A stretch of DNA of 58,501 bases from Acidothermaceae bacterium (GTDB taxonomy: Bacteria > Actinomycetota > Actinomycetes > Acidothermales > Acidothermaceae). A program made the position numbers and the translations under genes. The notes under the pieces are model-generated. The model was not told where the DNA came from. It made no database searches and was given only the letters and a program-made list of their open reading frames with translations. Location: positions 1 through 58,501 of the forward strand of contig JAICYF010000001.1 of NCBI GenBank assembly GCA_025934355.1. The letters are read 5' to 3'. Positions 10,840-22,487 of the stretch are shown here, piece by piece; position 1 is the stretch's first letter; every line of letters starts with the position of its first letter.

Positions 10840-11676
10840 ATGACCGTCACGACAGAGAAGATCGCCGACGCCGTGGGTGCGGGCGCCGACGCCATCCGGC
10901 ACCAGGCGAAAGGCCGCATCGCCAAGGCGATGGAGCAGGCGGAGAAGGCCCGAGCGCAGGCTGACAAAGCCCGTATGCGCGCCGACAAGGCGCAGGCAAA
11001 GCTCGCCGGCAAGCTCGAAGGCAAGCTCGGCCGCAAGCTGGCCGGCAAGCTGGCCGGCAAGGCGACGATCGACAAAGCCGCCCTCAAAGCGCGGATGGCC
11101 AACCGGATGACGGGAATGACCAAGGACATGGGTAAGAGCGCGGGCAAGGTCGCGATGAAGAGCAGCGCGGCGCGGTCCGCCGCGTCGACGGCCGCGAAAG
11201 CCGCCGCGATGAACCTGCCGGCCGCGTGGATGATGCGCCGGCGGATGCAGCAACGAGCAGCGGAGGCAGCCCGAATGGCGTCGATGGAGGCTTCGAAGCA
11301 GTTGAAGCAGGCCCGCGCGATGATGCAAACCCGCGTCATCCCGACCGTGGTGCCGATGGCGTCGTCCATGATGGACCAGGCCTCGAGCAAACTCGACGAG
11401 TTCATGGTGTCGTCGGCGCCGGCCCGCAAGGAGGCCATGCGGCGCGGGATGCTCGCAGCCGCCGTGCTGCGCGGGTCCGAACCGATTGTGAAGAAGCGCC
11501 GCCGCTGGCCGATCGCGCTGGTGTTTGCCGCCCTTGGCGCGGCCATCGGCGCGGCTGCGGCGTGGCTGTCACAAGCAGGCAAGCCGGTGCAGCTGACGCC
11601 GTACCCGATCCCGGCCGAGGACGGCGACACCACCGTCGACCTCACCTCCGAGGACGCCGCCCGCCACGAGTCCTGA
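10840..11676 (+). CDS. Hypothetical Ala/Lys/Met-rich protein with C-terminal TM helix
   Basis: ATG at 10840 has a strong SD (GGAGGGA). The protein has a KLAGKLEGKLGRKLAGKLAGK periodic segment and the TM helix WPIALVFAALGAAIGAAAAWL. The antisense ORF 10824..11645 is judged a shadow. Confidence 0.55.
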   Translation: MTVTTEKIADAVGAGADAIRHQAKGRIAKAMEQAEKARAQADKARMRADKAQAKLAGKLEGKLGRKLAGKLAGKATIDKAALKARMANRMTGMTKDMGKSAGKVAMKSSAARSAASTAAKAAAMNLPAAWMMRRRMQQRAAEAARMASMEASKQLKQARAMMQTRVIPTVVPMASSMMDQASSKLDEFMVSSAPARKEAMRRGMLAAAVLRGSEPIVKKRRRWPIALVFAALGAAIGAAAAWLSQAGKPVQLTPYPIPAEDGDTTVDLTSEDAARHES

Positions 11677-11702
11677 CCCGCCCTACTGCCGCACTGGGCG
11701 AA

Positions 11703-11778
11703 TGGTGGAGACGAGGGGAATCGAACCCCTAACCCCCGCCTTGCAAAGGCGGTGCTCTGCCAATTGAGCTACGTCCCC
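11703..11778 (-). tRNA. tRNA-Ala (anticodon TGC), CCA encoded
   Basis: It folds as a cloverleaf: acceptor GGGGACG/CGTCTCC with the G3:U70 Ala identity pair, anticodon loop CTTTGCAAG, T arm AGGGG-TTCGATT-CCCCT, and a 3' ACCA. Confidence 0.95.
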
Positions 11779-12436
11779 GAAGGGGAGCAACCATGCCTCT
11801 GACCTGCGGTTTTCCACTTCGGACAGTTCGCCGGAGATCGTGATCGCTCGCGCAAACCCATCTTCCCACACGTTGGCCCACGGGGTTTCTGGGCAGTTTC
11901 TGGGTGACGCTTCCGCTGACAGCGCTCCAACAAGCGCGACTTCCTTCACCGGCGGCTCGCCGCACGCACAATGCAGCACGCCTTGGGCCAAACCCCGAGC
12001 GACGCCGGCCCCCTAGCAATGCGCACCTCATCCGAGGTCGCTTGGCTCGCCCGGGCCTTGACCGGCCCGTCGGCCCTGCGACCGCCCCGCTCGCCGCGGA
12101 CGATTCGCGACCGAAGCGCGCGTAGCCAGGCGTCGGTCCTTGAGGTTCTTGGCCACCGCCCCGATCCATGGGGCTCCAGTCACGCCGATGATCAGGCCGG
12201 TCTCTGTTGCGTCCTCGGGCGAACGCAACGGGTCGGGATCCAAGTTGGCGATATGCCGGGAGCCGCGGCGCGTACGAAATATCGAGAAGGGTTCCACGTC
12301 TCAAATCGTCCCATGCCCCAGTCAGACTGTCACGGCATCGGCACGGCCAAGCGCCCATGCAAACCGAAGATGCGCTCCAGCATGAACTCGGCTTCGCTCG
12401 GAAAGATCGCGATACCCCGGTCGGTCACCGCTTGAC

Positions 12437-14023
12437 CTACTGGCGCAACTCAATCGCCACGATGCCGTCGTTCTTGATCACGCGCTCGGAATCCGGCAGT
12501 AGATTGCTCGCCCATCGAGTCTTCCACGCCAGCGGAGCCCCTAGGGTGTCCCGCGTGAGATCGAGAATGATCCAGCGAGCGCGCGGAATGTTTCCGTAGG
12601 CCTGATGAACGGCGTACACCTCCGTCCGCGAGACCAGCCACGGTGCAATGTCGTTATCGGCACGTACGACAGCACCAGTCGGAATCAGCTTCGCGACTTT
12701 CCACGCCGCGCTCATGCTGGCAGACCGCCGATAGCTATGTGCGGAAAGAATTTTGGAGAACGGGTAATGGCCCGCTGTAGTCTGAAGTAGCCCGATTGTG
12801 AGACACGCAGCACCAAAGACCGCGGGCCTAAGAGCTGCGTCAACGATTCGCTGCTTCCTAAGAATCCGCCTCGCGAGACGCACAAGGCGTGGATATCCAT
12901 CAATGGCGGCAAAGAAGATTACCGGCATCAGGATAGCGTCGTAATGATAATGCGTACTCCAGTAGTCCTGATTTGACGCGACGAAACGCCATCCCATAGT
13001 TGGCACGGCTAAGGCGATTACCGGCGATAGGAGCGCGACGAATCCAACGCACGTCACTGCGATTACGATGAAGGATGTGCGCATCCATATGTCCGGAGTT
13101 GTCCAGGGTTGGAGAACAGTATCGACGCTCAAACCTCGACCGCCGGACAGTCCGTTCAGCGATCGGTAATGATCGTCGGCCGTGAAAGAAGGCACGATAA
13201 AAGCTGTGGCAGCTATAAACCACCCACCACCCCAGAGCATGACCGCAAAACCCAGGCGTTTTCGACAAGAGGCGATGATGACTCCTGCGACGAAAGCAGT
13301 TAGGCCCAAGTCTTCCTTCACGAACACCAGCAACGCAAATAGGACGCTCGCATACCTGAACCGGCGGCGCTGTAGATATTCAAGGGCGTACGCCGCGATT
13401 GGCACTGCGAACGCGACTTCGTGAAAGTCAAATGCGACCGCGGACTGAAGGCCATACGAGATCCCGTAGGCTAGCTCGATAAACGCGCCAGCAGCTACGC
13501 CAAACTTCTGCGTAGCGAATCGACCAACCGGTACAGCGGAGAGGGCGATCAGCGCCGCTTGCGCGACCAGTAAGGTGACCGGACTTGGAAAGAGCCGGTA
13601 GACCGGGGCCAAGACGATGAGAACTGGGCTGAAATGGTCGCCCCAGGCGTTCATACCTTGCTTCAGCTCGATCGTCGGCGCCTGTCCCGACGCGTAATGT
13701 CTAACGATCTGCGTGAAGATGCCCAGGTCATACCCTGCCGAGCGACCGGTGGCATATCGGGAGAGCTCGACTGTCAGGTAGAGCGCGAATACCGCCACCC
13801 CGAGCGCAGCGGGCAAGGCAAGAGCTGCCCCAGAACGGGATGGCGAGGCAGGACGTGGACCCACCGCGTCTAAGCTCGCGCAGACCATCGTCCCCGTCCT
13901 CAACCTCTTGCCGACCGCGCCCAGATCGACGAAGTCTAGCCGGAATCTGGCGCCGCGCTCGATGCCCAGTTCGCGCGATGTGACGTTGCCGCGACCGCCG
14001 GCTGTGCGAGGTGCAAACCGCAA
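12437..14023 (-). CDS. Polytopic membrane protein, DUF2079-like (GT-C-like fold suspected)
   Basis: More than 10 predicted TM helices. The N-terminal region reads YDLGIFTQIVRHYASGQAPT...WGDHFSPVLIVLAPVY, as in DUF2079 proteins. An alternative start is ATG 13888. Confidence 0.65.
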   Translation of the reverse strand: MRFAPRTAGGRGNVTSRELGIERGARFRLDFVDLGAVGKRLRTGTMVCASLDAVGPRPASPSRSGAALALPAALGVAVFALYLTVELSRYATGRSAGYDLGIFTQIVRHYASGQAPTIELKQGMNAWGDHFSPVLIVLAPVYRLFPSPVTLLVAQAALIALSAVPVGRFATQKFGVAAGAFIELAYGISYGLQSAVAFDFHEVAFAVPIAAYALEYLQRRRFRYASVLFALLVFVKEDLGLTAFVAGVIIASCRKRLGFAVMLWGGGWFIAATAFIVPSFTADDHYRSLNGLSGGRGLSVDTVLQPWTTPDIWMRTSFIVIAVTCVGFVALLSPVIALAVPTMGWRFVASNQDYWSTHYHYDAILMPVIFFAAIDGYPRLVRLARRILRKQRIVDAALRPAVFGAACLTIGLLQTTAGHYPFSKILSAHSYRRSASMSAAWKVAKLIPTGAVVRADNDIAPWLVSRTEVYAVHQAYGNIPRARWIILDLTRDTLGAPLAWKTRWASNLLPDSERVIKNDGIVAIELRQ

Positions 14024-14186
14024 ACCTTACATCGGACCTGCGGCAGTTTGACGGACCTGACTAAGTGAGACCATTCGCCGCGTCAGTAGCCCAAGGCCAG
14101 GGTATTCTTCAGCTGCGCCTTGTGTTGCGGGAATCCACCGGAGATCTGTCGGTCAGATCGAGCGGCGTGGCTGGCTTCTCCCGTTC

Positions 14187-14777
14187 CTAGATTCGTCGGC
14201 GTCTGACAGCCATACGTCCAGCCAGCGGAGCTCGCTGACCCAGGAATACGCCGGCGCCTAGCCCAACGGCGAGAATAGAAGCCAGGAGCGAAGCCGTCGA
14301 ACTGCGCGGCTGTAAGAGAACCGCCCATGCGCTGACCGACTGATCAATGTGAGTACCCATAAGCCACATTGAAATGGGCAGGAAGCATAACGGTATCCAT
14401 GCAAGCGAGGCGGAGACAAGTCCTGTGGCGGCTAACGCGATGCCGTACATGGTCATCCAGTTGCGTGCGACGATTACAAGGTCGAATGAAGCACCGGCGG
14501 CGCAGCCAGCAAAGCTAAGAGCGGCCCACAAAAGCATTATGTAGACACGGCGGCGATGCCGGTGCGTGGCCGTCCGTTCTAGATCATCAAACGCTCGTGA
14601 TAGTGCGGCCGGCACGCCTAGTACGGCAACAGTGGGGGCGATCGGCCACACGACCGATTTGACACCAGCCTGACCTGGAACGGCCAACGCATCGCTAGGA
14701 ACGAGTAGCAGCAAGAGTGTCGCGAGTCCCGCGCAGGAGAGCATGATGCTTAGGCCCCACGCGCGCGCCGTCTTCAT
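14187..14777 (-). CDS. Hypothetical polytopic membrane protein
   Basis: ATG at 14777 overlaps the upstream stop (ATGA). About 5-6 hydrophobic helices. No recognisable motif. Confidence 0.55.
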   Translation of the reverse strand: MKTARAWGLSIMLSCAGLATLLLLLVPSDALAVPGQAGVKSVVWPIAPTVAVLGVPAALSRAFDDLERTATHRHRRRVYIMLLWAALSFAGCAAGASFDLVIVARNWMTMYGIALAATGLVSASLAWIPLCFLPISMWLMGTHIDQSVSAWAVLLQPRSSTASLLASILAVGLGAGVFLGQRAPLAGRMAVRRRRI

Positions 14778-15991
14778 GGCGCGGCGGGTGCGCCGCACTT
14801 GGTCAAATAGTTGACTGCCTGACGCAGGAACGCGCTTTGGGTCGGGCGATCTCCCTCGGTAAACGACCGAGGTATCGTCGGGTCGTCGATGTGCTGCCCG
14901 TCCACGACGCTCAGAAGCCACCACTCCAGCGCGGAATAGGACTCGTTGGCGCGCTGATCATGAAATATGTCGCACGTGTCTCGTACGTACGCTGCGGCAA
15001 TCACCTCGCTGGTCTGTGGATTGTCACCGCTCAGCACCTGCAATGGCAATGGTGCAACCGTCATCTCGCCCCCGCGGGCGCTCTGGTCGAATCGCGTTGG
15101 AACAGGTGAGACGTCAGCCTGCCTCAGCGCGACGAGGTAATGAGTCAAGCGCGCGCGGAGATGTCCCAAATTGCGAGCGTAACCGGGGCCGACGCAGATT
15201 TGAGGGTCGACTCCTACGCATGTCACGCGATCCCTGACAGGCGTCAGCATCTTCGGGCCTGCACCAATCACGCCGGATGCCGCCAGCAGGACGAGCATAG
15301 ATGACGCCGCCAGAAACGAGTTGGACCGCATGTCGGCCTTGAGTGACCGGACACATGCACAGATAACCAGCATCACAACACCTGCGAAGAAGCCTACTTG
15401 TGCCGTTACCATCGATAGGCTGGGCGTGAGACCGACGAGCGAGCTGGTTGCGCCGCCGACAGTAACAAACTGCGCGGGGCCGTTGGAATAGAGAAAGATG
15501 ATTACCGCGAAGCAGCCGGCGGCGGCGAGCGGTGCAACGAGCACATGGCGGAATGCCCATCCAGCGAGGAGCCCCAGCGCGGTTTCTGCCGCCATTATGA
15601 AGACTGGCGGGAATATCGCGGGCAACACACGCAAGGCGGGCATCCCTGGCGTGCCGCTCGCCGACACTGCGATCACAGCGGCAGCAAGTGTCGCTAGATA
15701 GGCCAACGACACCCACGTGGCCAGAGCAGACCATCGCATCAGAAAGGCGCCGAAGGGCCGTATTGCCGTTGAGAGCGTGTCCCGCTCAGCGCGGAGGCGG
15801 CGACCCTCCCACGCCGCGACCCCGGCGACGATCGGTCCCAACAAAACAGTGGTGAAGCCATGCTGGTACACCGCCCAGGTCCATTCGTGCACCCATTGGT
15901 GGCTGCGAAAGACAAGCTGTGCGAAGAGGACCGCCACAAACACCGGAAACGCGGTTCGGCCGACTGAACGCCGGAGCGTGATGCTGAACAT
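14774..15991 (-). CDS. Hypothetical membrane protein (possible ABC-2-type permease) with C-terminal soluble domain
   Basis: ATG at 15991 lies 1 nt after the ABC ATPase stop. There are about 6 TM helices, then a soluble C-terminal region of about 170 aa containing Cys. The track start at 16147 lies inside the ATPase gene. Confidence 0.6.
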   Translation of the reverse strand: MFSITLRRSVGRTAFPVFVAVLFAQLVFRSHQWVHEWTWAVYQHGFTTVLLGPIVAGVAAWEGRRLRAERDTLSTAIRPFGAFLMRWSALATWVSLAYLATLAAAVIAVSASGTPGMPALRVLPAIFPPVFIMAAETALGLLAGWAFRHVLVAPLAAAGCFAVIIFLYSNGPAQFVTVGGATSSLVGLTPSLSMVTAQVGFFAGVVMLVICACVRSLKADMRSNSFLAASSMLVLLAASGVIGAGPKMLTPVRDRVTCVGVDPQICVGPGYARNLGHLRARLTHYLVALRQADVSPVPTRFDQSARGGEMTVAPLPLQVLSGDNPQTSEVIAAAYVRDTCDIFHDQRANESYSALEWWLLSVVDGQHIDDPTIPRSFTEGDRPTQSAFLRQAVNYLTKCGAPAAP

Positions 15992-15992
15992 C

Positions 15993-16763
15993 CTAGAGCG
16001 CTCCAAGGAAGTTCGCCGCCAAGTGAAGGCCCGAAGTACCGGCGAACGTCTCTCGGCCCACCCGCTCAAGCTCGTGCGGCGTCCCGAAAAATCTGACACC
16101 GTTGTCGCGTAAGCAGATGACATGGTCAGCCATCGCCACGTCCTCAAGCAGGTGTGTGCTAAACACCGTAAGACGATCGGTGCACAGGGTGCGCAGCCCT
16201 TCCCTTAGCGCTTGGGAGTGTTCCGGATCTAGTCCCGCTGTGGGCTCATCGAGCAGCAACACCGTCGGCTGCGAGACTAAAGCTTGCGCCACATACGCCC
16301 GGCGTTGCGTGCCCCCCGACAACGTACCTATCTTCTTGGTCGCGGTCGCTCGAAGGTCCAATAGAGACAGCACTTGTTTAACGTGGTGATCGAGCTCGCG
16401 CCGAGACTTTCCCTTCAGCCATCCAGCATATCTGCAGGCCTCCTCTACCGCGAAGTGCCGCAGCGCCGTTGGCTCCTGCGGGAGATAGGAGAGGTGCATC
16501 CTGGCGCTATCTGCGCCCCGACGCGTCGAGATATCCAGCCCGTTGATGGAGATTTTGCCACTCGCTACAGGCAATAGCGTCGCGATAGATCGGAGGAGCG
16601 TCGACTTACCTGACCCATTCGGGCCCACCAGGGCCACTAGGCCGCGGTACAAGCTTAGGTTCACGTTTTCCAGGATCGCGCGCTGACCCCGCCGAAGGCT
16701 CACCCCTTCCAAGTGGAGCGGGACGGGGCCAGCGCACGAATCCTGTGACGGCATATTGACCAC
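15993..16763 (-). CDS. ABC transporter ATP-binding protein
   Basis: Walker A is GPNGSGKST, the signature is LSGGTQRR, and Walker B is LLLDEPTAGLD. The start is either GTG 16763 or ATG 16754. Confidence 0.9.
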   Translation of the reverse strand: MVNMPSQDSCAGPVPLHLEGVSLRRGQRAILENVNLSLYRGLVALVGPNGSGKSTLLRSIATLLPVASGKISINGLDISTRRGADSARMHLSYLPQEPTALRHFAVEEACRYAGWLKGKSRRELDHHVKQVLSLLDLRATATKKIGTLSGGTQRRAYVAQALVSQPTVLLLDEPTAGLDPEHSQALREGLRTLCTDRLTVFSTHLLEDVAMADHVICLRDNGVRFFGTPHELERVGRETFAGTSGLHLAANFLGAL

Positions 16764-17254
16764 TAGTAGGAGAGCGTCGTGATTGCGTTTGCGGAACAGT
16801 GATCCGGGACGGGCCAGCCGAGCTGTACGCAGTCGGTGATCGACCCACGCGCCTGAGAAGACTGAACCTTCAGACTGTCACTCAGGTACAACGTCCAGGT
16901 CGGCCCGACACCAGAGAACTCACCGGTGCTCTTCTTCGTGTCGTACCACCAGCAGGTCAGGGTATTACCGGATCCATCGGTTCCGCACGAGGTGTTTTGA
17001 CCATAGAAGTAAAAGGACGTGTTCGAGTAGACGTTGTTGCCGTCATTCATCAGGTCTTTCAACTGTACCTTGTTCGTCACCTGCGTGCCTGTCGCTATGT
17101 AGAAGAATCCGAGCGCGGACGAACGCGCTTGGCCATTGTAAGACGCTGTGAGCGGACCCCAGTCCACGCCTTGCGCATACGCGACACCGCCGGCAAGACC
17201 CGTCGCGATAAAGGCCAGCAATGACGCGGCACCGACTTTCAGACTCCTTCGCAT
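16763..17254 (-). CDS. Secreted 4-Cys protein of unknown function
   Basis: ATG at 17254 lies 9 nt after GGAGG. The signal peptide is MRRSLKVGAASLLAFIATGLAGGVAYA/QG. The mature protein is about 134 aa, beta-rich (Tyr/Thr/Ser/Gly) and has 4 Cys. No family was recognised. Confidence 0.7.
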   Translation of the reverse strand: MRRSLKVGAASLLAFIATGLAGGVAYAQGVDWGPLTASYNGQARSSALGFFYIATGTQVTNKVQLKDLMNDGNNVYSNTSFYFYGQNTSCGTDGSGNTLTCWWYDTKKSTGEFSGVGPTWTLYLSDSLKVQSSQARGSITDCVQLGWPVPDHCSANAITTLSY

Positions 17255-17365
17255 ACTCGTAAGCCTCCGTTGCATCGGTCGTGCCTCGGGACCATCCCGC
17301 GGTTGCGCCGCAGTTTTACATAGCGAAAAGAGATTTCGCCAGAGCGGTGTGGCTAGTGCGGTCCG

Positions 17366-17392
17366 GCGGCGCGTCTCGTAGAAACGCGCCGC
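17366..17392. terminator. Stem-loop between regulator gene and secreted-protein gene
   Basis: GCGGCGCGT-ctcgtagaa-ACGCGCCGC, a 9-bp stem. It lies about 150 nt downstream of the regulator stop. Confidence 0.4.
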
Positions 17393-17539
17393 GACTGAAT
17401 CTCAGGCTGGCAATAAATGGCGATGAGGTCGCATGAGCATCTGCAGTCGGGCACCCCGTGAACGGTTGTTGCTCTCGACACACAAAGGACGCTCGGATAG
17501 CAGTCCAATACGCAAGCCGAGAACGCGCGCTTGAGTGGG

Positions 17540-18550
17540 CTAGCTGTCTCGGGTATCCGACTCAACTCGTTCAGCAAAGCCCAACCACCAGGCCGAGCAC
17601 GCCCGGGCGAGATTCGCGACAACGTCGCTTTGGTGCCGCGGCATGGCCACGATCACGTCTTCCGACTGGGATGCGGCCAGGCTTGTGATGCTGAATGCTC
17701 TCAACAGTGTTCGCCCGGCGTTACGCAGGTGAATCGAGGGGTCCTTTTGCAATACGGCCAAAAGATTTGCCGCCGCGTTGCCAAGGTGAGAGTTTCCGCT
17801 GAGTTCGAGATCACCCGTTGGTTGCGCGCAGGGTCTAGCGGAAGGTGACCTTGTGGCAAGGCTGACACGACGGCCGGGGGTCGTTCGTCCGAGCCCGCTG
17901 GCTGGTTCTGACGGAACGGCGCGTACTCGGCCGTCCCTCCCAAGGCGTGAGTTGAGGTGAGGAATTTCCTCACTCGAGCGCCGGACTGCACCCACGGTTT
18001 TCGGTGACAACCCGGTGAGAGCCGCGACTTTTCGGTCGGACCATTCTGGTGTGGCGGACATGATGCGCGCGGCCGCGGTGCGACGGTCAGCGAGCGTGAG
18101 AGGAAGCCCATGCGCGACGTTGAGCTGCACTGCGAGCGCGAATGCCTCATCGTCGCTACCGTCGTAGTAGACCACTTCGATGTCGGCTCGACACTGGAGC
18201 TGCGCGGCACGCAATCGATGCATTCCATCGATAACGCGCATCGTCGCCCGGTGGACGAGGATCGGCGGCAGCGGCCCGTCGACCTCGGCCAACCGTCGCA
18301 CGTGCTCTCGGTCCTCACCGCGAGATCGTGGCGAAAGGCCGCCGGCGAGTTCCGCAAGCGGAACGCGCGTCACGGCGATGCCCCCCGCGAGCGACCCGGA
18401 GCGTTGCACTATTGGCAGCGTGGCCAGCATCGCGATGGTGTGATGCTGAGATCCGCGACGCAAGGCACCCACGGAAGCGGTTGAAGCGCCCTTCCTGGTG
18501 AGCGCCGTCGCGAGATCCGCGTCGTTGACATGCTCAGTCCGATCGTCCAT
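17540..18550 (-). CDS. StrR-family transcriptional regulator (ParB-like N-terminal domain plus HTH)
   Basis: The segment LSPRSRGEDREHVRRLAEVDGPLPPILVHRATMRVIDGMHRLRAA...AFALAVQLNVAHGLPLTLADRRTAAARI...WSDRKVAALTGLSPKTVGAVRR matches, from memory, the conserved core of StrR/NovG/Bbr-type regulators. Confidence 0.7.
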   Translation of the reverse strand: MDDRTEHVNDADLATALTRKGASTASVGALRRGSQHHTIAMLATLPIVQRSGSLAGGIAVTRVPLAELAGGLSPRSRGEDREHVRRLAEVDGPLPPILVHRATMRVIDGMHRLRAAQLQCRADIEVVYYDGSDDEAFALAVQLNVAHGLPLTLADRRTAAARIMSATPEWSDRKVAALTGLSPKTVGAVRRSSEEIPHLNSRLGRDGRVRAVPSEPASGLGRTTPGRRVSLATRSPSARPCAQPTGDLELSGNSHLGNAAANLLAVLQKDPSIHLRNAGRTLLRAFSITSLAASQSEDVIVAMPRHQSDVVANLARACSAWWLGFAERVESDTRDS

Positions 18551-18979
18551 GGCCCCCGCTCCGGCGCGTCATAACCGAGCGAACATGCGCGCGCACGGAA
18601 GGTTAGCGCAGGGAATCGGGTGATAAAAGAGCACCGGGTGCCACAGCATCAAGAACCGGCTAGCGAGGCGTCAGTGACGGGTGCCTTTGCGGCGACAATG
18701 TGCTTCGCTGCCGCACTCGCCATGCTCGGATGCACAGAGACACCCCACTTCCGTCACGAGGGCGACGAAATGACGGTCAAAGTAGAGGTTCGTCACGCTC
18801 TCGGATGCGGCACCCTCTTCTAGGCCGGGAAGCACGCGCGACGCGGGAACTGGACGATGGATTAGACGACGGGTCCTTCGGCAAGGTCACCCGGCGCAAG
18901 AGCGCGCGGGCGACGACCTGCGCGGGCCAGATATCAAGCAGCGCGGCCGCGCCTGATTCGGTCTAAAGGCAGCGCCGAT

Positions 18980-19627
18980 CTGTGCTCGACCCTGCTCAGT
19001 CTGGCCGCGGCGACGATCAAGGGTGGGGCGGCCGAGCGGCGTGCGGCCTTGGCGCAACGCACGGGCGGCCCTCACCGCTTCGCGAGGTGAGGGATCGGGA
19101 TGAAGCTCGGCGCTGAGCAGGCCAGGCTGGTCATCTCCGACGAAGTGCAACGGCAGTTGAGAAGCACCGACGGACGGACACGCGCGATTGCGAACGCCCA
19201 GCCAAGTGGGGCGTCCACGGGGAGCGCGGTTCCTGGAATGGCTGTGGGACGACGTGCATCGCCGGATCGGAGGTCGAGGACGATGAAGCTGCGGGAAAGA
19301 ATCCTGAGCGCCTACTCTTCCGGCGCGCCCAAAGGCGGTCACTACTGGCGATCAAACTGTCGCCCCGACATGTAGCCACCCGCCGCACAAGCCGCAGGTT
19401 TCCCGACCGATATCGACGCGAAGAGGGCCGTGAAAGTCCGGTGGGGCGTTCGCAGCGCTCGACACCATTACGCGACCTGGCTCCTCGACACGTGCGGCAT
19501 GATGCTTGCCGTGGTGCGCAGAGTGATGGGCGCGAGTTTCAGGGTGAACTCGGAAAACGCGGTCCATTGGATGTCGCGGCAACACTTGGATCACTGTTCG
19601 CCCAACCAGATTGGCGTGTGCGGCTGA
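18980..19627 (+). pseudogene. Decayed tyrosine integrase (frameshifted C-terminal half)
   Basis: The 19430..19627 frame reads ARHHYATWLLDTCGMMLAVVRRVMGASFRVNSENAVHW. This resembles the RHxYATWL...VMGH...Y catalytic region of actinobacterial integrases, but with Ala and His at the expected His and Tyr positions. Box-I-like LLSLAAATIKGGAAE (about 18980..19036) and PSGASTGSAVPG (about 19196..19237) lie in other frames. Confidence 0.45.
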
Positions 19628-19885
19628 CATTTAGTGTCGTTCGACGATTTGCGCGTCGCCCCGGGCGTCAGCGCGCGAATCGGCAACGCGGACCCGCAGT
19701 GAATGTGGCCCTGCAGCGGCGACCGAGATGAGTAAACGACAAGCGCATGCCGGGCGATCCGAGACTTTGGCAGCCGGCAGGATTAATTTTGGTCCGTACG
19801 CGGGACGGAAGGGGCGAAATGCGGGGGCGCCGAGCGGGACCTTGACGACTACTTCCAGGGTCGCCTCAGGTCCGCGCTCGCCGAG

Positions 19886-21013
19886 TTGTCGGCGTTGAAC
19901 CCGGACCTGTTGCTGACCGAGAACCAGGACGTCCTAGTTGCCGCACTCATCGAGAAGCATCTCCCACAACCAGTCACTGTCAGCTGGGACGAAGTGACCC
20001 GCAGTCAGGTCATCGAGGTGTCCCTTCAGGTTCAGGATCCGTTCGAACGCGGTGCGAACTACACCGTCGCGGGGAGCAAGGTCATTCTGACCTTCCCCCT
20101 GACTGGGACGTCCGACATGCTCGCCTACCGAGCATCGACGTACAGCTACAGCTCGATGCGCGGGGAGGTCTCGGGCAATGCCATCGTCTTGGAAGTGGCC
20201 GATCGAACCCTCACGGCGGAGGTCGTTCAAAGTCGGATTGACCAACTACGGCAAGACATCGACAAACGGGCTGGGTGGGCGAATGAAGACCTTCGAAGGT
20301 TCACGGAGGTCGCGAAGGAGGAGCTTAAAAGCCTTTACCTCAGCCGAAAAGAGCGCATCCTCCACGATCGAGAGGTTGAGGAAGCACTCGGAATACCGGT
20401 CCGGTCATCCGACGCGCGACGACAGCCTGTGCCAGCCTGTCGAAAGCAGGTCGCACTTGAAACTCGCCGCGCGCAAGCAGAGTTCGTGCCTGAGCCCGAA
20501 CTCGCCGAAGCCATCTACCGCGAGGTGCTCGATGTCGTCCAGTCTTGGGCGCGGAGTCTCGAGCGGACACCGAAGACCAGTAACAAGTTGGACGAAGAGG
20601 AGCTGCGTGACCTCCTGCTAGGCACTTTGAACGGCTATTGGAGCGGAGCCGCCGGTGGCGAGCTCTTCAACGGCAGCGGCAAGACAGACATACTTATCCG
20701 GTTCAACAACCGCAACGTCTTCATTGCCGAGTGCAAGATCTGGCGCGGGCGAAAAACGGCGTCGGAGGCCATCGGCCAGCTCCTGAGCTACCTTGTATGG
20801 CGCGACACCAAGGCGGCCATCGTGATGTTCATCAAGACCGCTGATCCAGCAGTCACGATGGAGAGGCTGCATGCTGCTGTTGAGTCGCATCCGCAGTACG
20901 TGCTAACGAAGGACTCCACGGAACCGCAGAAGCAGGTGGACTACGTCTTCACGGCCGACACCGAAGGCCGCCGAATCTCATTGGCGATAATCCCGGTCAT
21001 CGTGCGCCCTTGA
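19886..21013 (+). CDS. PD-(D/E)xK nuclease-like protein with QxxxY motif and unrecognised N-terminal region
   Basis: The C-terminal signature is E259 (GGELF), D268 (GKTDILIRF), E282-C-K284 (FIAECKIW) and Q298-LLS-Y302. The start is uncertain: TTG 19886 has no SD, and the frame is open from 19787 with no earlier canonical start. Confidence 0.65.
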   Translation: MSALNPDLLLTENQDVLVAALIEKHLPQPVTVSWDEVTRSQVIEVSLQVQDPFERGANYTVAGSKVILTFPLTGTSDMLAYRASTYSYSSMRGEVSGNAIVLEVADRTLTAEVVQSRIDQLRQDIDKRAGWANEDLRRFTEVAKEELKSLYLSRKERILHDREVEEALGIPVRSSDARRQPVPACRKQVALETRRAQAEFVPEPELAEAIYREVLDVVQSWARSLERTPKTSNKLDEEELRDLLLGTLNGYWSGAAGGELFNGSGKTDILIRFNNRNVFIAECKIWRGRKTASEAIGQLLSYLVWRDTKAAIVMFIKTADPAVTMERLHAAVESHPQYVLTKDSTEPQKQVDYVFTADTEGRRISLAIIPVIVRP

Positions 21014-21163
21014 ACTGCGGAGATTCATCGCGTGGCGCCAGTGATCCGTGGCAGTATCGGTGCCGGTCCGGCGAGCCTCCCTCGTGACCCTGGCCCGAGC
21101 CACGGTGCAGCGGGGGGCAGGCGTCGGGAGGTCACCCGGACGTCTCACGGAGGGACGGCTGTC

Positions 21164-21712
21164 GTGACCAAGCCGGAAGCGAGCGAGCCACGCTACCTGG
21201 ACCGCTGGGCGGTCGCGGTCTGCTGGCTCATTGGTGTCGGCGGTCTCGGGGCGGGCGGCGTAGCCGTCTTTAAGACGACGAACGGTCTGGGTAGCGCGGT
21301 GCTGATCGTGGTTGGGCTGATCGTGCTCGTAATCGCATTGGCTCGTCGCGTTCCCACCAGCCTGAGAGCTGGGGATTACTCGGCCGATTGGGGCAGCGCC
21401 GCGCTCGGCGCCGCTGTTGGGGCAAAACTCGTGGCGGAAAATGTCAACGCGGCTGCAGAGACGGCGACTGACACAAGGGAGTTGGCGAACGCGGCCAATG
21501 CCACCGCCAGCGAACTGCAAGAGGCAGCTAAGTTGCCTCCGAGTTGGCTCGTGCAGGCGGCACGTCATCGCACGATGCAGCGATGGGCGGCGGCAGACTT
21601 CGACGCGCTTTTCCGTTCCGCTTTGGTTGCCGCGCAGCAAACGCCGACGCCGCCGCCGCGACCTGGCAACCGCGACGTGGCGACGGAGGACCACGCCGAA
21701 TCCGATGGCTAA
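21164..21712 (+). CDS. Hypothetical 2-TM membrane protein with Ala-rich helical tail
   Basis: GTG at 21164 lies 8 nt after GGAGGGA. TM helices are WAVAVCWLIGVGGLGAGGVAVF and GSAVLIVVGLIVLVIALA. The track start at 21032 lacks an SD. Confidence 0.6.
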   Translation: MTKPEASEPRYLDRWAVAVCWLIGVGGLGAGGVAVFKTTNGLGSAVLIVVGLIVLVIALARRVPTSLRAGDYSADWGSAALGAAVGAKLVAENVNAAAETATDTRELANAANATASELQEAAKLPPSWLVQAARHRTMQRWAAADFDALFRSALVAAQQTPTPPPRPGNRDVATEDHAESDG

Positions 21713-22095
21713 GCGTCCGCAGAACGGTCCTTCGTAACGGTCCGAGCAACACGCCGATCCTTCGCGCGCCCGCACGCTCTCGCGATTGCGTTCCCATTGG
21801 AGTGGGTCGAACTGAGACCGCGCTTTGTGGTAGTGCCCGGCAGCCAGCTGCTCGGAGCTTTCACACGGGCACACGCCTCCCGCACGAGGGATGGAGGCTG
21901 CGGCCCTTCGGCTGCCGTCGCTAGTCCGCCGGCGCGCCTCATCGCGCGAGGGTGGCGGCTGATAATGACAAGGCGACGACTCCCGAGATTGCGCCATGAC
22001 CCACCGTCGCGCAATCGTCGCCGAACGGTTTCTGGCTGGTTTCTGGGCAACCAGCCCCAGAAGAGCCGCTATTCGCGTGAACTCTGGGGATTTCT

Positions 22096-22139
22096 CCCGC
22101 CTTGCAAAGGCGGTGCTCTGCCAATTGAGCTACGTCCCC
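22096..22139 (-). pseudogene. tRNA-Ala 5' fragment (nt 1-44) left at the ancestral position
   Basis: It is identical to 11735..11778 and lacks the variable loop, T arm and acceptor 3' strand. It sits immediately downstream of the DLW-39 gene and tRNA-Ile. Confidence 0.9.
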
Positions 22140-22153
22140 GAAGGGATAACCAG

Positions 22154-22291
22154 TTAGCTGACCGAGTTGCCGACGGGCTCGGCGCTGGTGGCCTCGATCC
22201 ACAGGTCCTCTTCGGCCTGCGCCGCCTGCCAGCGACGGTAGGCGACCAACCCGCCGAATGCCGCGAGTGCGAGCAAGATGAGCTTCTTCAC
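22154..22291 (-). CDS. DLW-39 family small membrane protein (45 aa; not in ORF track)
   Basis: GTG 22291 opens VKKLILLALAAFGGLVAYRRWQAAQAEEDLWIEATSAEPVGNSVS, ending at TAA. It has one TM helix and the DLW motif. The position between tRNA-Ile and tRNA-Ala is typical for this family. Confidence 0.7.
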   Translation of the reverse strand: MKKLILLALAAFGGLVAYRRWQAAQAEEDLWIEATSAEPVGNSVS

Positions 22292-22328
22292 GGATCTTCA
22301 CCTACCTCGACCAGGTCGACGTCGTGGG

Positions 22329-22402
22329 TGGGCCTGGGAGGACTTGAACCTCCGGCCTCATCCTTATCAGGGATGCGCTCTAACCGACTGAGCTACAGGC
22401 CC
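22329..22402 (-). tRNA. tRNA-Ile (anticodon GAT), CCA not encoded
   Basis: Acceptor is GGGCCTG/CAGGCCC, the anticodon loop is CTGATAA, and the T arm is GGAGG-TTCAAGT-CCTCC. The discriminator A is followed by CCC. Confidence 0.95.
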
Positions 22403-22487
22403 AAGCGTGCCTAGCGAGGGTACCTGATGGCCGGACGCCGACCCAATTCGGAGGCAGCTCACCCGGCCGCGGCGACCGCCGGCCTGC

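Follow-up and report, generated by a model that had tools for sequence, protein, structure and literature searches.

A frameshifted member of the PDC-S54 family of single-gene defence candidates on a tRNA-Ala element of an Acidothermaceae bacterium

A PDC-S54 gene uncoupled from its start codon

We analysed a stretch of 58,501 nucleotides from contig JAICYF010000001.1 of an Acidothermaceae bacterium (hereafter the window), whose list of open reading frames (ORFs) places on the forward strand a 375-aa ORF at 19886..21013 with TTG as its first codon. An original prediction, made from the letters alone, had read this ORF as a RecB/Cas4-type PD-(D/E)xK nuclease and had joined it to a downstream ORF with two putative transmembrane segments (hereafter the 2-TM ORF) in a defence-like module belonging to no named system. 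The nuclease-like ORF was confirmed with its coordinates, length and first codon, and searches of Pfam, NCBIfam and PDB sequences returned nothing for its product, in agreement with the statement that the N-terminal part is unrecognisable. Comparison with PADLOC, in contrast to the claim that no named system applies, gave a single strong match, to PDC-S54 (PDLC05036), with E=6e-109 and covering residues 3-371 of the 375-aa protein against profile positions 30-404 of 410. Judged by this near-full-length profile match, the window gene is a frameshifted new member of a catalogued family of single-gene defence candidates.

The odd 5' end of the ORF, which had already been pointed out, was examined at the nucleotide level. 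A TAA at 19784-86 is followed by a frame that is open from 19787, and the first in-frame ATG, GTG or TTG is met at 19886. A non-canonical start further upstream was considered and rejected, ATG, GTG, TTG, CTG and ATT all being missing from this frame between 19787 and 19886, where an ACG at 19805 is the only candidate. A purine-rich sequence resembling a Shine-Dalgarno (SD) motif, GGAAGGGG (19807-14), precedes an ATG at 19819-21 (together 19807..19821, +), and immediately beyond this ATG lies a run of five G residues (19823..19827, +). In the sequence as it stands, the ATG and the gene body lie in different frames, and the one opened by the ATG ends after 8 codons at TGA 19843-45. The translation upstream of TTG 19886, RDLDDYFQGRLRSALAELSAL, can nevertheless be aligned with the N-termini of homologues. 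When one G is deleted from the run, the gene extends from 19819 to 21013 (+) and encodes a protein of 397 aa, a length typical of the family, whose N-terminus MRGAERDLDDYFQGRL resembles that of homologue P0007, MRGAGRQLGDYFRGRL, and the common family pattern MWGxxRRLDDYLRGRL. The repair adds 20 N-terminal profile positions and 12 bits to the match with the PDC-S54 hidden Markov model (HMM), which then reads E=1.4e-112 and 375 bits over profile positions 10-404 of 410. On this sequence evidence the missing start is a +1 frameshift, relative to the family frame, in the G5 run just after the ancestral ATG, and the oddity of the 5' end is thereby accounted for.

The extra G would uncouple the start codon from the reading frame, so that the copy is either inactivated or expressed solely from TTG 19886 or TTG 19895 with a truncated N-terminus, unless it reflects a sequencing error in the homopolymer. 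The longest ORF with a canonical start (19886..21013, +) begins with a TTG that has no SD motif, and translation from there would leave out 22 residues at the N-terminus. The greater part of the conserved first helix would be lost with them; this helix (residues 19-36, numbered from 19787) is one that is predicted with a mean pLDDT of 85-92 in blocks of 10 residues and in which L19, Y22, L23, R26 and A30 are nearly invariant. Phase variation is not favoured as an explanation, since five consecutive G make a short tract for this mechanism. Promoter and terminator scans over 19300-22200 found nothing.

The family to which the gene belongs is large and broad. The search of 5.8 billion proteins yielded 709 homologues, all of which carry the annotation 'hypothetical' and nearly all of which have a length of about 400 aa; identity to the nearest is 66%. 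Among GTDB representative genomes, relatives were found in Actinomycetota, Proteobacteria, Planctomycetota, Verrucomicrobiota, Acidobacteriota, Melainabacteria and Saccharibacteria and in one metagenome-assembled genome (MAG) of Helarchaeota. Homologues from Pseudomonas, from a Verrucomicrobiae MAG and from the Helarchaeota MAG themselves match the PDC-S54 model with E=1e-120 to 1e-148. A profile of the C-terminal domain matched 3,202 clusters (50% identity) at E<=0.001 in a library of 1.84 billion proteins, 1,303 of them at E<=1e-30, and an architecture of about 400 aa is common to almost all of the cluster matches listed. The C-terminal domain is also shared by phrog_9664, a phage family of unknown function (E=1.2e-5). 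The 972-aa protein P0255 carries the PDC-S54 C-terminal domain at its very end (802-967), behind an N-terminal part of about 800 residues that Pfam does not match and that might serve as a different kind of sensor module; for this and other unusually long members Pfam gave no informative fusion domain. PDB searches with the single protein and with two family alignments (A2, 20 members from different phyla; A4, 26 members with mutual identity below 50%) returned no relative of solved structure.

The PDCs (phage defence candidates) of PADLOC were predicted through guilt-by-embedding in BREX, DISARM and type I restriction-modification (RM) systems, mobility-associated proteins having been filtered out before candidates were called, and PDC-S54 is one of the single-gene candidates, predicted rather than tested (Payne et al., bioRxiv 10.1101/2024.01.29.577857). 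The window gene resembles PDC-S54 in its near-full-length HMM match, in being a single gene and in belonging to a family with variable, often defence-related neighbours. It differs in its frameshifted start and in its location, which is a tRNA-Ala island among transporter genes and not the interior of a BREX, DISARM or type I RM system.

Domain architecture and a putative nuclease active site

An AlphaFold model of the full protein (pLDDT 77; residues counted from 19787) divides it into four parts, all encoded on the forward strand. The N-terminal alpha/beta domain (19835..20215, residues 17-143) is composed of three helices and a beta sheet; its fold was not recognised, and Foldseek, Pfam and PDB gave no match for it. 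A single long helix of about 58 residues follows (20216..20395, residues 144-201, block-mean pLDDT 80-91), which from the model is a possible coiled coil or oligomerisation element. It leads into a basic linker that is predicted to be largely disordered (20396..20491, pLDDT below 50 at residues 209-235) and finally into a PD-(D/E)xK-like C-terminal domain (20492..21010), the conserved core of the protein as outlined by the domain model, the pairwise identities and the cluster profile.

Conservation is distributed unevenly over these parts, the mean pairwise identity across the 20 members of A2 amounting to 56% in the C-terminal core and to 24-27% in the N-terminal parts, with 24-26% for the alpha/beta domain itself. 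The linker nevertheless retains the motifs ALGIP, P..RK and PEP, with P204, P216, R219 and E236 nearly invariant and P237 invariant. Mean net charge is -6.9 for the N-terminal domain and +5.5 over the 32 residues of the linker, with signs that are consistent across the 20 members. This pattern suggests that a conserved effector is preceded by a regulatory or sensor module that evolves fast, possibly with electrostatic autoinhibition between the two.

The original prediction had named catalytic residues from the single sequence, and their codons proved to be correct. In the numbering of the 375-aa ORF, the putative active site as read from alignments A2 and A4 comprises D268 (GAC, 20687-89), E282 (20729-31) and K284 (20735-37), which become D290, E304 and K306 in the repaired protein, as well as Q298 (20777-79) and Y302 (20789-91), together with two extra glutamates, one in the preceding helix (20594-96) and the other, E259, in strand 1 (20660-62), all encoded on the forward strand. 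The aspartate, the E-x-K pair, the glutamine and both extra glutamates are invariant in A2 and A4, and the tyrosine is invariant in A2 and conserved in at least 90% of A4, so that these residues are no coincidental matches. Modelled alone, the C-terminal domain reached a pLDDT of 85 and a pTM of 0.85 with an alpha-beta-beta-beta-alpha-beta topology (helix 35-49, strands 55-61, 64-71 and 74-83, helix 87-100 and strand 106-115 in the numbering of the model). D268 starts strand 2, strand 3 bears E282-x-K284, and Q298xxxY302 falls on the helix after it. As predicted, this arrangement is that of the canonical PD-(D/E)xK core with the fourth motif of RecB-type enzymes. A Walker-A reading of the string GSGKTD was rejected, the first-position G being missing and the motif lying in a beta-hairpin loop of the model.

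The order and spacing of D...ExK...QxxxY are like those of RecB, AddB and Cas4, with 14 residues from K to Q, and the motif residues occupy the corresponding elements, namely strands 2 and 3 and the helix after them. The likeness does not extend further: neither the window protein nor the 20 family members gave a match to Pfam PDDEXK, PDDEXK_1 or Cas4, and the gene is without helicase or CRISPR context. The C-terminal domain of the window copy has a single cysteine (C283, 375-aa numbering) and can therefore not form a four-cysteine Fe-S cluster of the Cas4 type. As the model has it, a restriction-endonuclease fold placed C-terminally to a different N-terminal module is shared with Mrr and LmuA. 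Among the best 50 Foldseek matches of the C-terminal model in BFVD, two of the three top TM-scores belonged to Mrr-type or other restriction endonucleases, albeit at 0.41-0.42 and with non-significant E-values, and the protein differs from type IV enzymes such as Mrr by the lack of an Mrr_cat match and of a winged-helix N-domain, its own N-terminal domain being acidic. LmuA of Lamassu was matched with E=0.0086 over only 76 residues in the catalytic core, below significance, and no LmuB/SMC partner was found beside the gene, in the window or in the sampled loci of homologues. The remaining marginal profile matches were pPIWI_RE_REase (0.024-0.058), NERD (0.067) and a type IIG restriction endonuclease (0.082), and every marginal match outside PDC-S54 belongs to families of the restriction-endonuclease fold. 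When a 163-sequence alignment of the C-terminal domain was compared by hhalign with two actinobacterial nucleases and with Mrr, McrC and HsdR from E. coli, each as a single sequence, McrC reached a probability of 8% versus 3.5% for the negative control, a difference that carries no information on the assignment.

We consider a PD-(D/E)xK-type nuclease to be the best available reading of the C-terminal domain, because the motif is invariant, the predicted topology fits and the weak matches lead solely to restriction-endonuclease folds. It is well motivated but not proven, since the independent fold and profile checks were weak. Of the assignment to RecB/Cas4-type nucleases, the motif, its QxxxY extension and the predicted topology stand; no significant profile or fold match to a known member was found.

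The downstream ORF and the tRNA-Ala island

The 2-TM ORF was located as described, 182 codons at 21164..21712 (+), with the SD motif GGAGGGA at 21149-55 placed 8 nt before its GTG start and hydrophobic segments at aa 15-36 and 40-62. Its status as a gene is another matter. The search of 5.8 billion proteins found only the ORF itself, tblastn found no match in plasmids, and codon-position GC (0.70/0.56/0.72) gave no clear coding signal; moreover, a 339-aa antisense ORF covers the same DNA. The 2-TM ORF is perhaps a gene peculiar to this lineage, perhaps a spurious reading frame. That it would serve the nuclease as sensor, anchor or effector within a two-gene defence module is highly improbable in our view, even though the two ORFs share a strand at a distance of 150 nt, the source annotation also calls the 2-TM ORF as a gene, its SD motif is good, it encodes two hydrophobic segments, and small single-TM ORFs, unrelated to it, occur downstream of the homologue in two other loci. 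In 83 loci of PDC-S54 homologues, tblastn detected nothing resembling it (best E 0.2); the ORFs downstream of these homologues are mutually unrelated and often on the opposite strand, PADLOC treats the family as single-gene, and segments rich in Val, Leu, Ala and Gly that pass for transmembrane helices arise easily at 66% GC. As PDC-S54 homologues were never found linked to the 2-TM gene, a conserved two-gene module is refuted. On the available sequences the ORF is unrelated to the conserved system, and the proposed module is one gene.

The region had further been described as a low-GC island integrated at a tRNA gene beside an integrase relic. Lower GC and tRNA integration were borne out. The island is an insertion of 10.36 kb at tRNA-Ala (11785-22095) with a GC content of 0.621 versus 0.675 outside, bounded by exact 50-nt direct repeats on the reverse strand. 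In repeat copy 1 (11735..11784, -) the 5'-terminal 44 nt of tRNA-Ala, which is intact here (11703-11778), are joined to 6 nt upstream of the gene, and copy 2 (22096..22145, -) is a 5' fragment of tRNA-Ala beside tRNA-Ile (22325-22403, -), just past which lie gyrA and a DUF3566 gene. In the contig of a relative (L092) the corresponding site is empty, with tRNA-Ile and tRNA-Ala only 178 nt apart and no insertion; its alignment with the window stops exactly at the direct repeat, and repeat copy 1 is 100% identical to its tRNA-Ala (compared at 10845-10924 of L092). The DUF3566 protein is 90% identical to that of L092 and 62-73% identical to proteins of Acidothermaceae bacterium. The integrase relic could not be substantiated. 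No integrase or relic turned up in six-frame Pfam searches of 18551-19818 and 21713-22095, nor when tyrosine recombinases of three homologue loci were run by tblastn against the entire window, and the faint string of the type RHxxATxLL in the ORF 19430-19627 was supported neither by Pfam at E<=10 nor by tblastn.

The geometry of the insertion deserves a comment. Elements that target tRNA genes usually duplicate the 3' part of the tRNA, whereas the repeat of this island duplicates the 5' part. A distance of 10.4 kb now separates tRNA-Ile from the intact tRNA-Ala, and past the 6 nt upstream of the latter the sequence is that of the island. L092 for its part has, on the opposite flank of tRNA-Ala, a segment of its own of about 5 kb (10925-15894; methyltransferase, TetR, aldo-keto reductase, HTH_31), and because this segment is missing from the window (11677-11705), both flanks of the tRNA gene are variable.

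Beside the PDC-S54 gene, the island encodes on the reverse strand a ParB-like protein of 336 aa (17540-18550), which matches phrog_1033 with E=4.7e-10 and TIGR00180 with E=9e-4, the second match being below its cutoff. In locus L089 the homologue likewise has a ParB_N protein (542 aa) at a distance of about 3 kb, which may be a coincidence. The remaining cargo (12437-17275, -) comprises three membrane proteins, one of them with DUF2079 and the other two (245 and 457 aa, their ORFs overlapping) unassigned, together with an ABC ATPase resembling DrrA and a secreted, cysteine-containing protein of 170 aa; this gene content is suggestive of a cassette for export or immunity.

A proposed stand-alone immune nuclease and its alternatives

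The nine gene-called loci of homologues gave a varied picture, and no recurrent neighbour was found in these or across the 83 loci. Known defence genes lie within 8 kb of the homologue in six of the nine, with TIR_2 at the locus edge in a seventh, and recombinases or conjugation genes occur in five. The Kribbella locus carries SIR2_2/DUF4020 and a STAND NTPase, that of Rhodococcus Abi_2 on a conjugative element with two integrases, that of Microbacterium AbiEii, and that of Promicromonospora a short pAgo with DUF4365, Mrr_cat, a type IIG RM system and an integrase. TIR and HipA were found in a further locus, TIR_2 and ParB_N in another, and a type I RM operon with a resolvase and an integrase in a third, where the homologue adjoins the operon and is not embedded in it; the two Nocardia loci have recombinases only. 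A defence role of the family, as the original prediction had proposed for this gene, is therefore plausible, albeit on circumstantial grounds, because PDC-S54 is a PADLOC candidate and its homologues are often found beside RM, pAgo, TIR, SIR2 and Abi genes and recombinases.

Taking these observations together, we think it fairly probable that 19819-21013 encodes a member of PDC-S54 acting as a stand-alone sensor-nuclease, carried by the tRNA-Ala element, devoid of a partner and deprived of its start codon by an extra G. The protein would act alone: its N-terminal region and linker would prevent the nuclease from being active or correctly assembled before a cue of infection is perceived, the long helix would drive oligomerisation, and the C-terminal domain would then cut DNA with the help of a metal ion and so halt the phage or the infected cell. 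No dedicated partner would be needed, and the downstream 2-TM ORF would be unrelated. Shedu (SduA) is a single-protein defence in which a variable N-terminal regulatory or sensor region precedes a C-terminal PD-(D/E)xK nuclease. The concept is alike, but Pfam and PADLOC gave no DUF4263/SduA match, and the N-terminal domain, the long helix and the basic linker are different.

Several observations weigh against this proposal. The structural check by Foldseek returned nothing at E<=0.001, either for the full-length model against PDB or for the C-terminal model against PDB and BFVD, and the PDB matches of highest probability, although below significance, were nucleotidyltransferase folds (OAS, Pol mu, TUT7). 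We rejected the latter because our model, in its predicted strand order, has three consecutive antiparallel strands that no helix interrupts, and because the GS...DxD motif is missing. Profiles of named nuclease families gave no significant match in Pfam, PDB or, besides PDC-S54, in PADLOC (all E>0.004). The trigger, the substrate and the oligomeric state of the PDC-S54 protein are ones that we infer. Within the island, no other gene matched a defence model beyond generic similarity of the ABC ATPase, and the neighbours in the window are the ABC exporter, membrane proteins and the ParB-like protein and not defence genes, so that, with the integrase relic also missing, the setting said to be usual for defence systems was not found here. 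A 2026 survey states that 'PDCs remain unvalidated', and PDC-S54 does not appear in the main texts consulted on PADLOC candidates, which contain neither an experiment on it nor a mechanism.

The same domain organisation could be that of a solitary restriction endonuclease, type IV-like or otherwise direct-acting, whose N-terminal domain reads phage DNA and whose C-terminal domain cuts it, with no abortive infection or protein sensing involved. The protein has a restriction-endonuclease fold and no methyltransferase partner, its weak structural likeness is to Mrr-type enzymes, its weak profile matches include LmuA and the type IIG endonuclease, and homologues occur beside RM systems. We hold this to be quite unlikely all the same: the N-terminal domain matches no SRA, winged-helix or other reader fold, Mrr_cat was not matched, and the consistently acidic character of the N-terminal domain speaks mildly against contact with DNA in a reader role. 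Equally to be weighed is that the protein is not immune at all but a nuclease of mobile elements, involved in maintenance, addiction, entry exclusion or recombination and hitch-hiking in variable regions. The recombinases and conjugation genes near homologues, the integrated element that bears the window copy and the domain shared with phrog_9664 would all fit such a protein, and half of the candidate systems assayed elsewhere gave no protection. This seems unlikely to us in view of the lack of a fixed link to any one type of element, of the proximity of known defence genes in most of the gene-called loci, and of the way the family was chosen, namely by its embedding in defence systems after removal of mobility proteins.

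Regarding the frameshift, the fifth G could be a sequencing or assembly error in the homopolymer, the organism itself having four G and an intact gene. The gene body retains every family-invariant residue and contains no internal stop, the window apparently derives from an uncultured actinobacterium and thus probably from a metagenome assembly, and the contig of the nearest relative (L092) is of long-read style and rich in fragmented housekeeping genes, as long-read indel errors would produce. An error is thus a serious possibility, although we incline towards genuine damage to the gene. The window has dnaA, dnaN, recF, gyrB, gyrA and other large genes intact, which indicates that the assembly is not generally ridden with indels, and inactivation of defence genes is frequent. 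The window copy would also not be the sole damaged member of the family, since the homologue of Mycobacterium terramassiliense (L021, 8001-9257) is interrupted by an in-frame stop codon.

For the window, the outcome chiefly corrects the earlier reading: the gene falls into a family already catalogued, has no partner gene and is a copy that is probably damaged. For the family we would tentatively suggest, at somewhat less than even confidence, that PDC-S54 is a mechanistically new single-protein immune nuclease in which an acidic N-terminal domain, together with the conserved basic linker, gates a PD-(D/E)xK domain of divergent type. If this is true, such nucleases would extend across many bacterial phyla to Asgard archaea, and the window copy, once its additional G is deleted, would be an actinobacterial representative of them. 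PDC-S54 combines size and breadth with an invariant nuclease-like active site, an unrecognised N-terminal domain and the lack of a Pfam entry, and settling its role would either define one of 145 embedded candidates or strike it from the defence catalogues. A later study assayed eight PADLOC candidates (seven PDCs and one HEC, S54 not included), of which four (three PDCs and the HEC) protected E. coli, so that about half of the assayed candidates proved protective in a heterologous host. The domain map, the active-site residues and the existence of intact homologues, such as those of Kribbella (P0042), Rhodococcus (P0006) and Pseudomonas carbonaria (L081), make the family accessible to experiment. 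The locus itself is of modest interest, but the PDC-S54 family as a whole is a reasonable experimental target.

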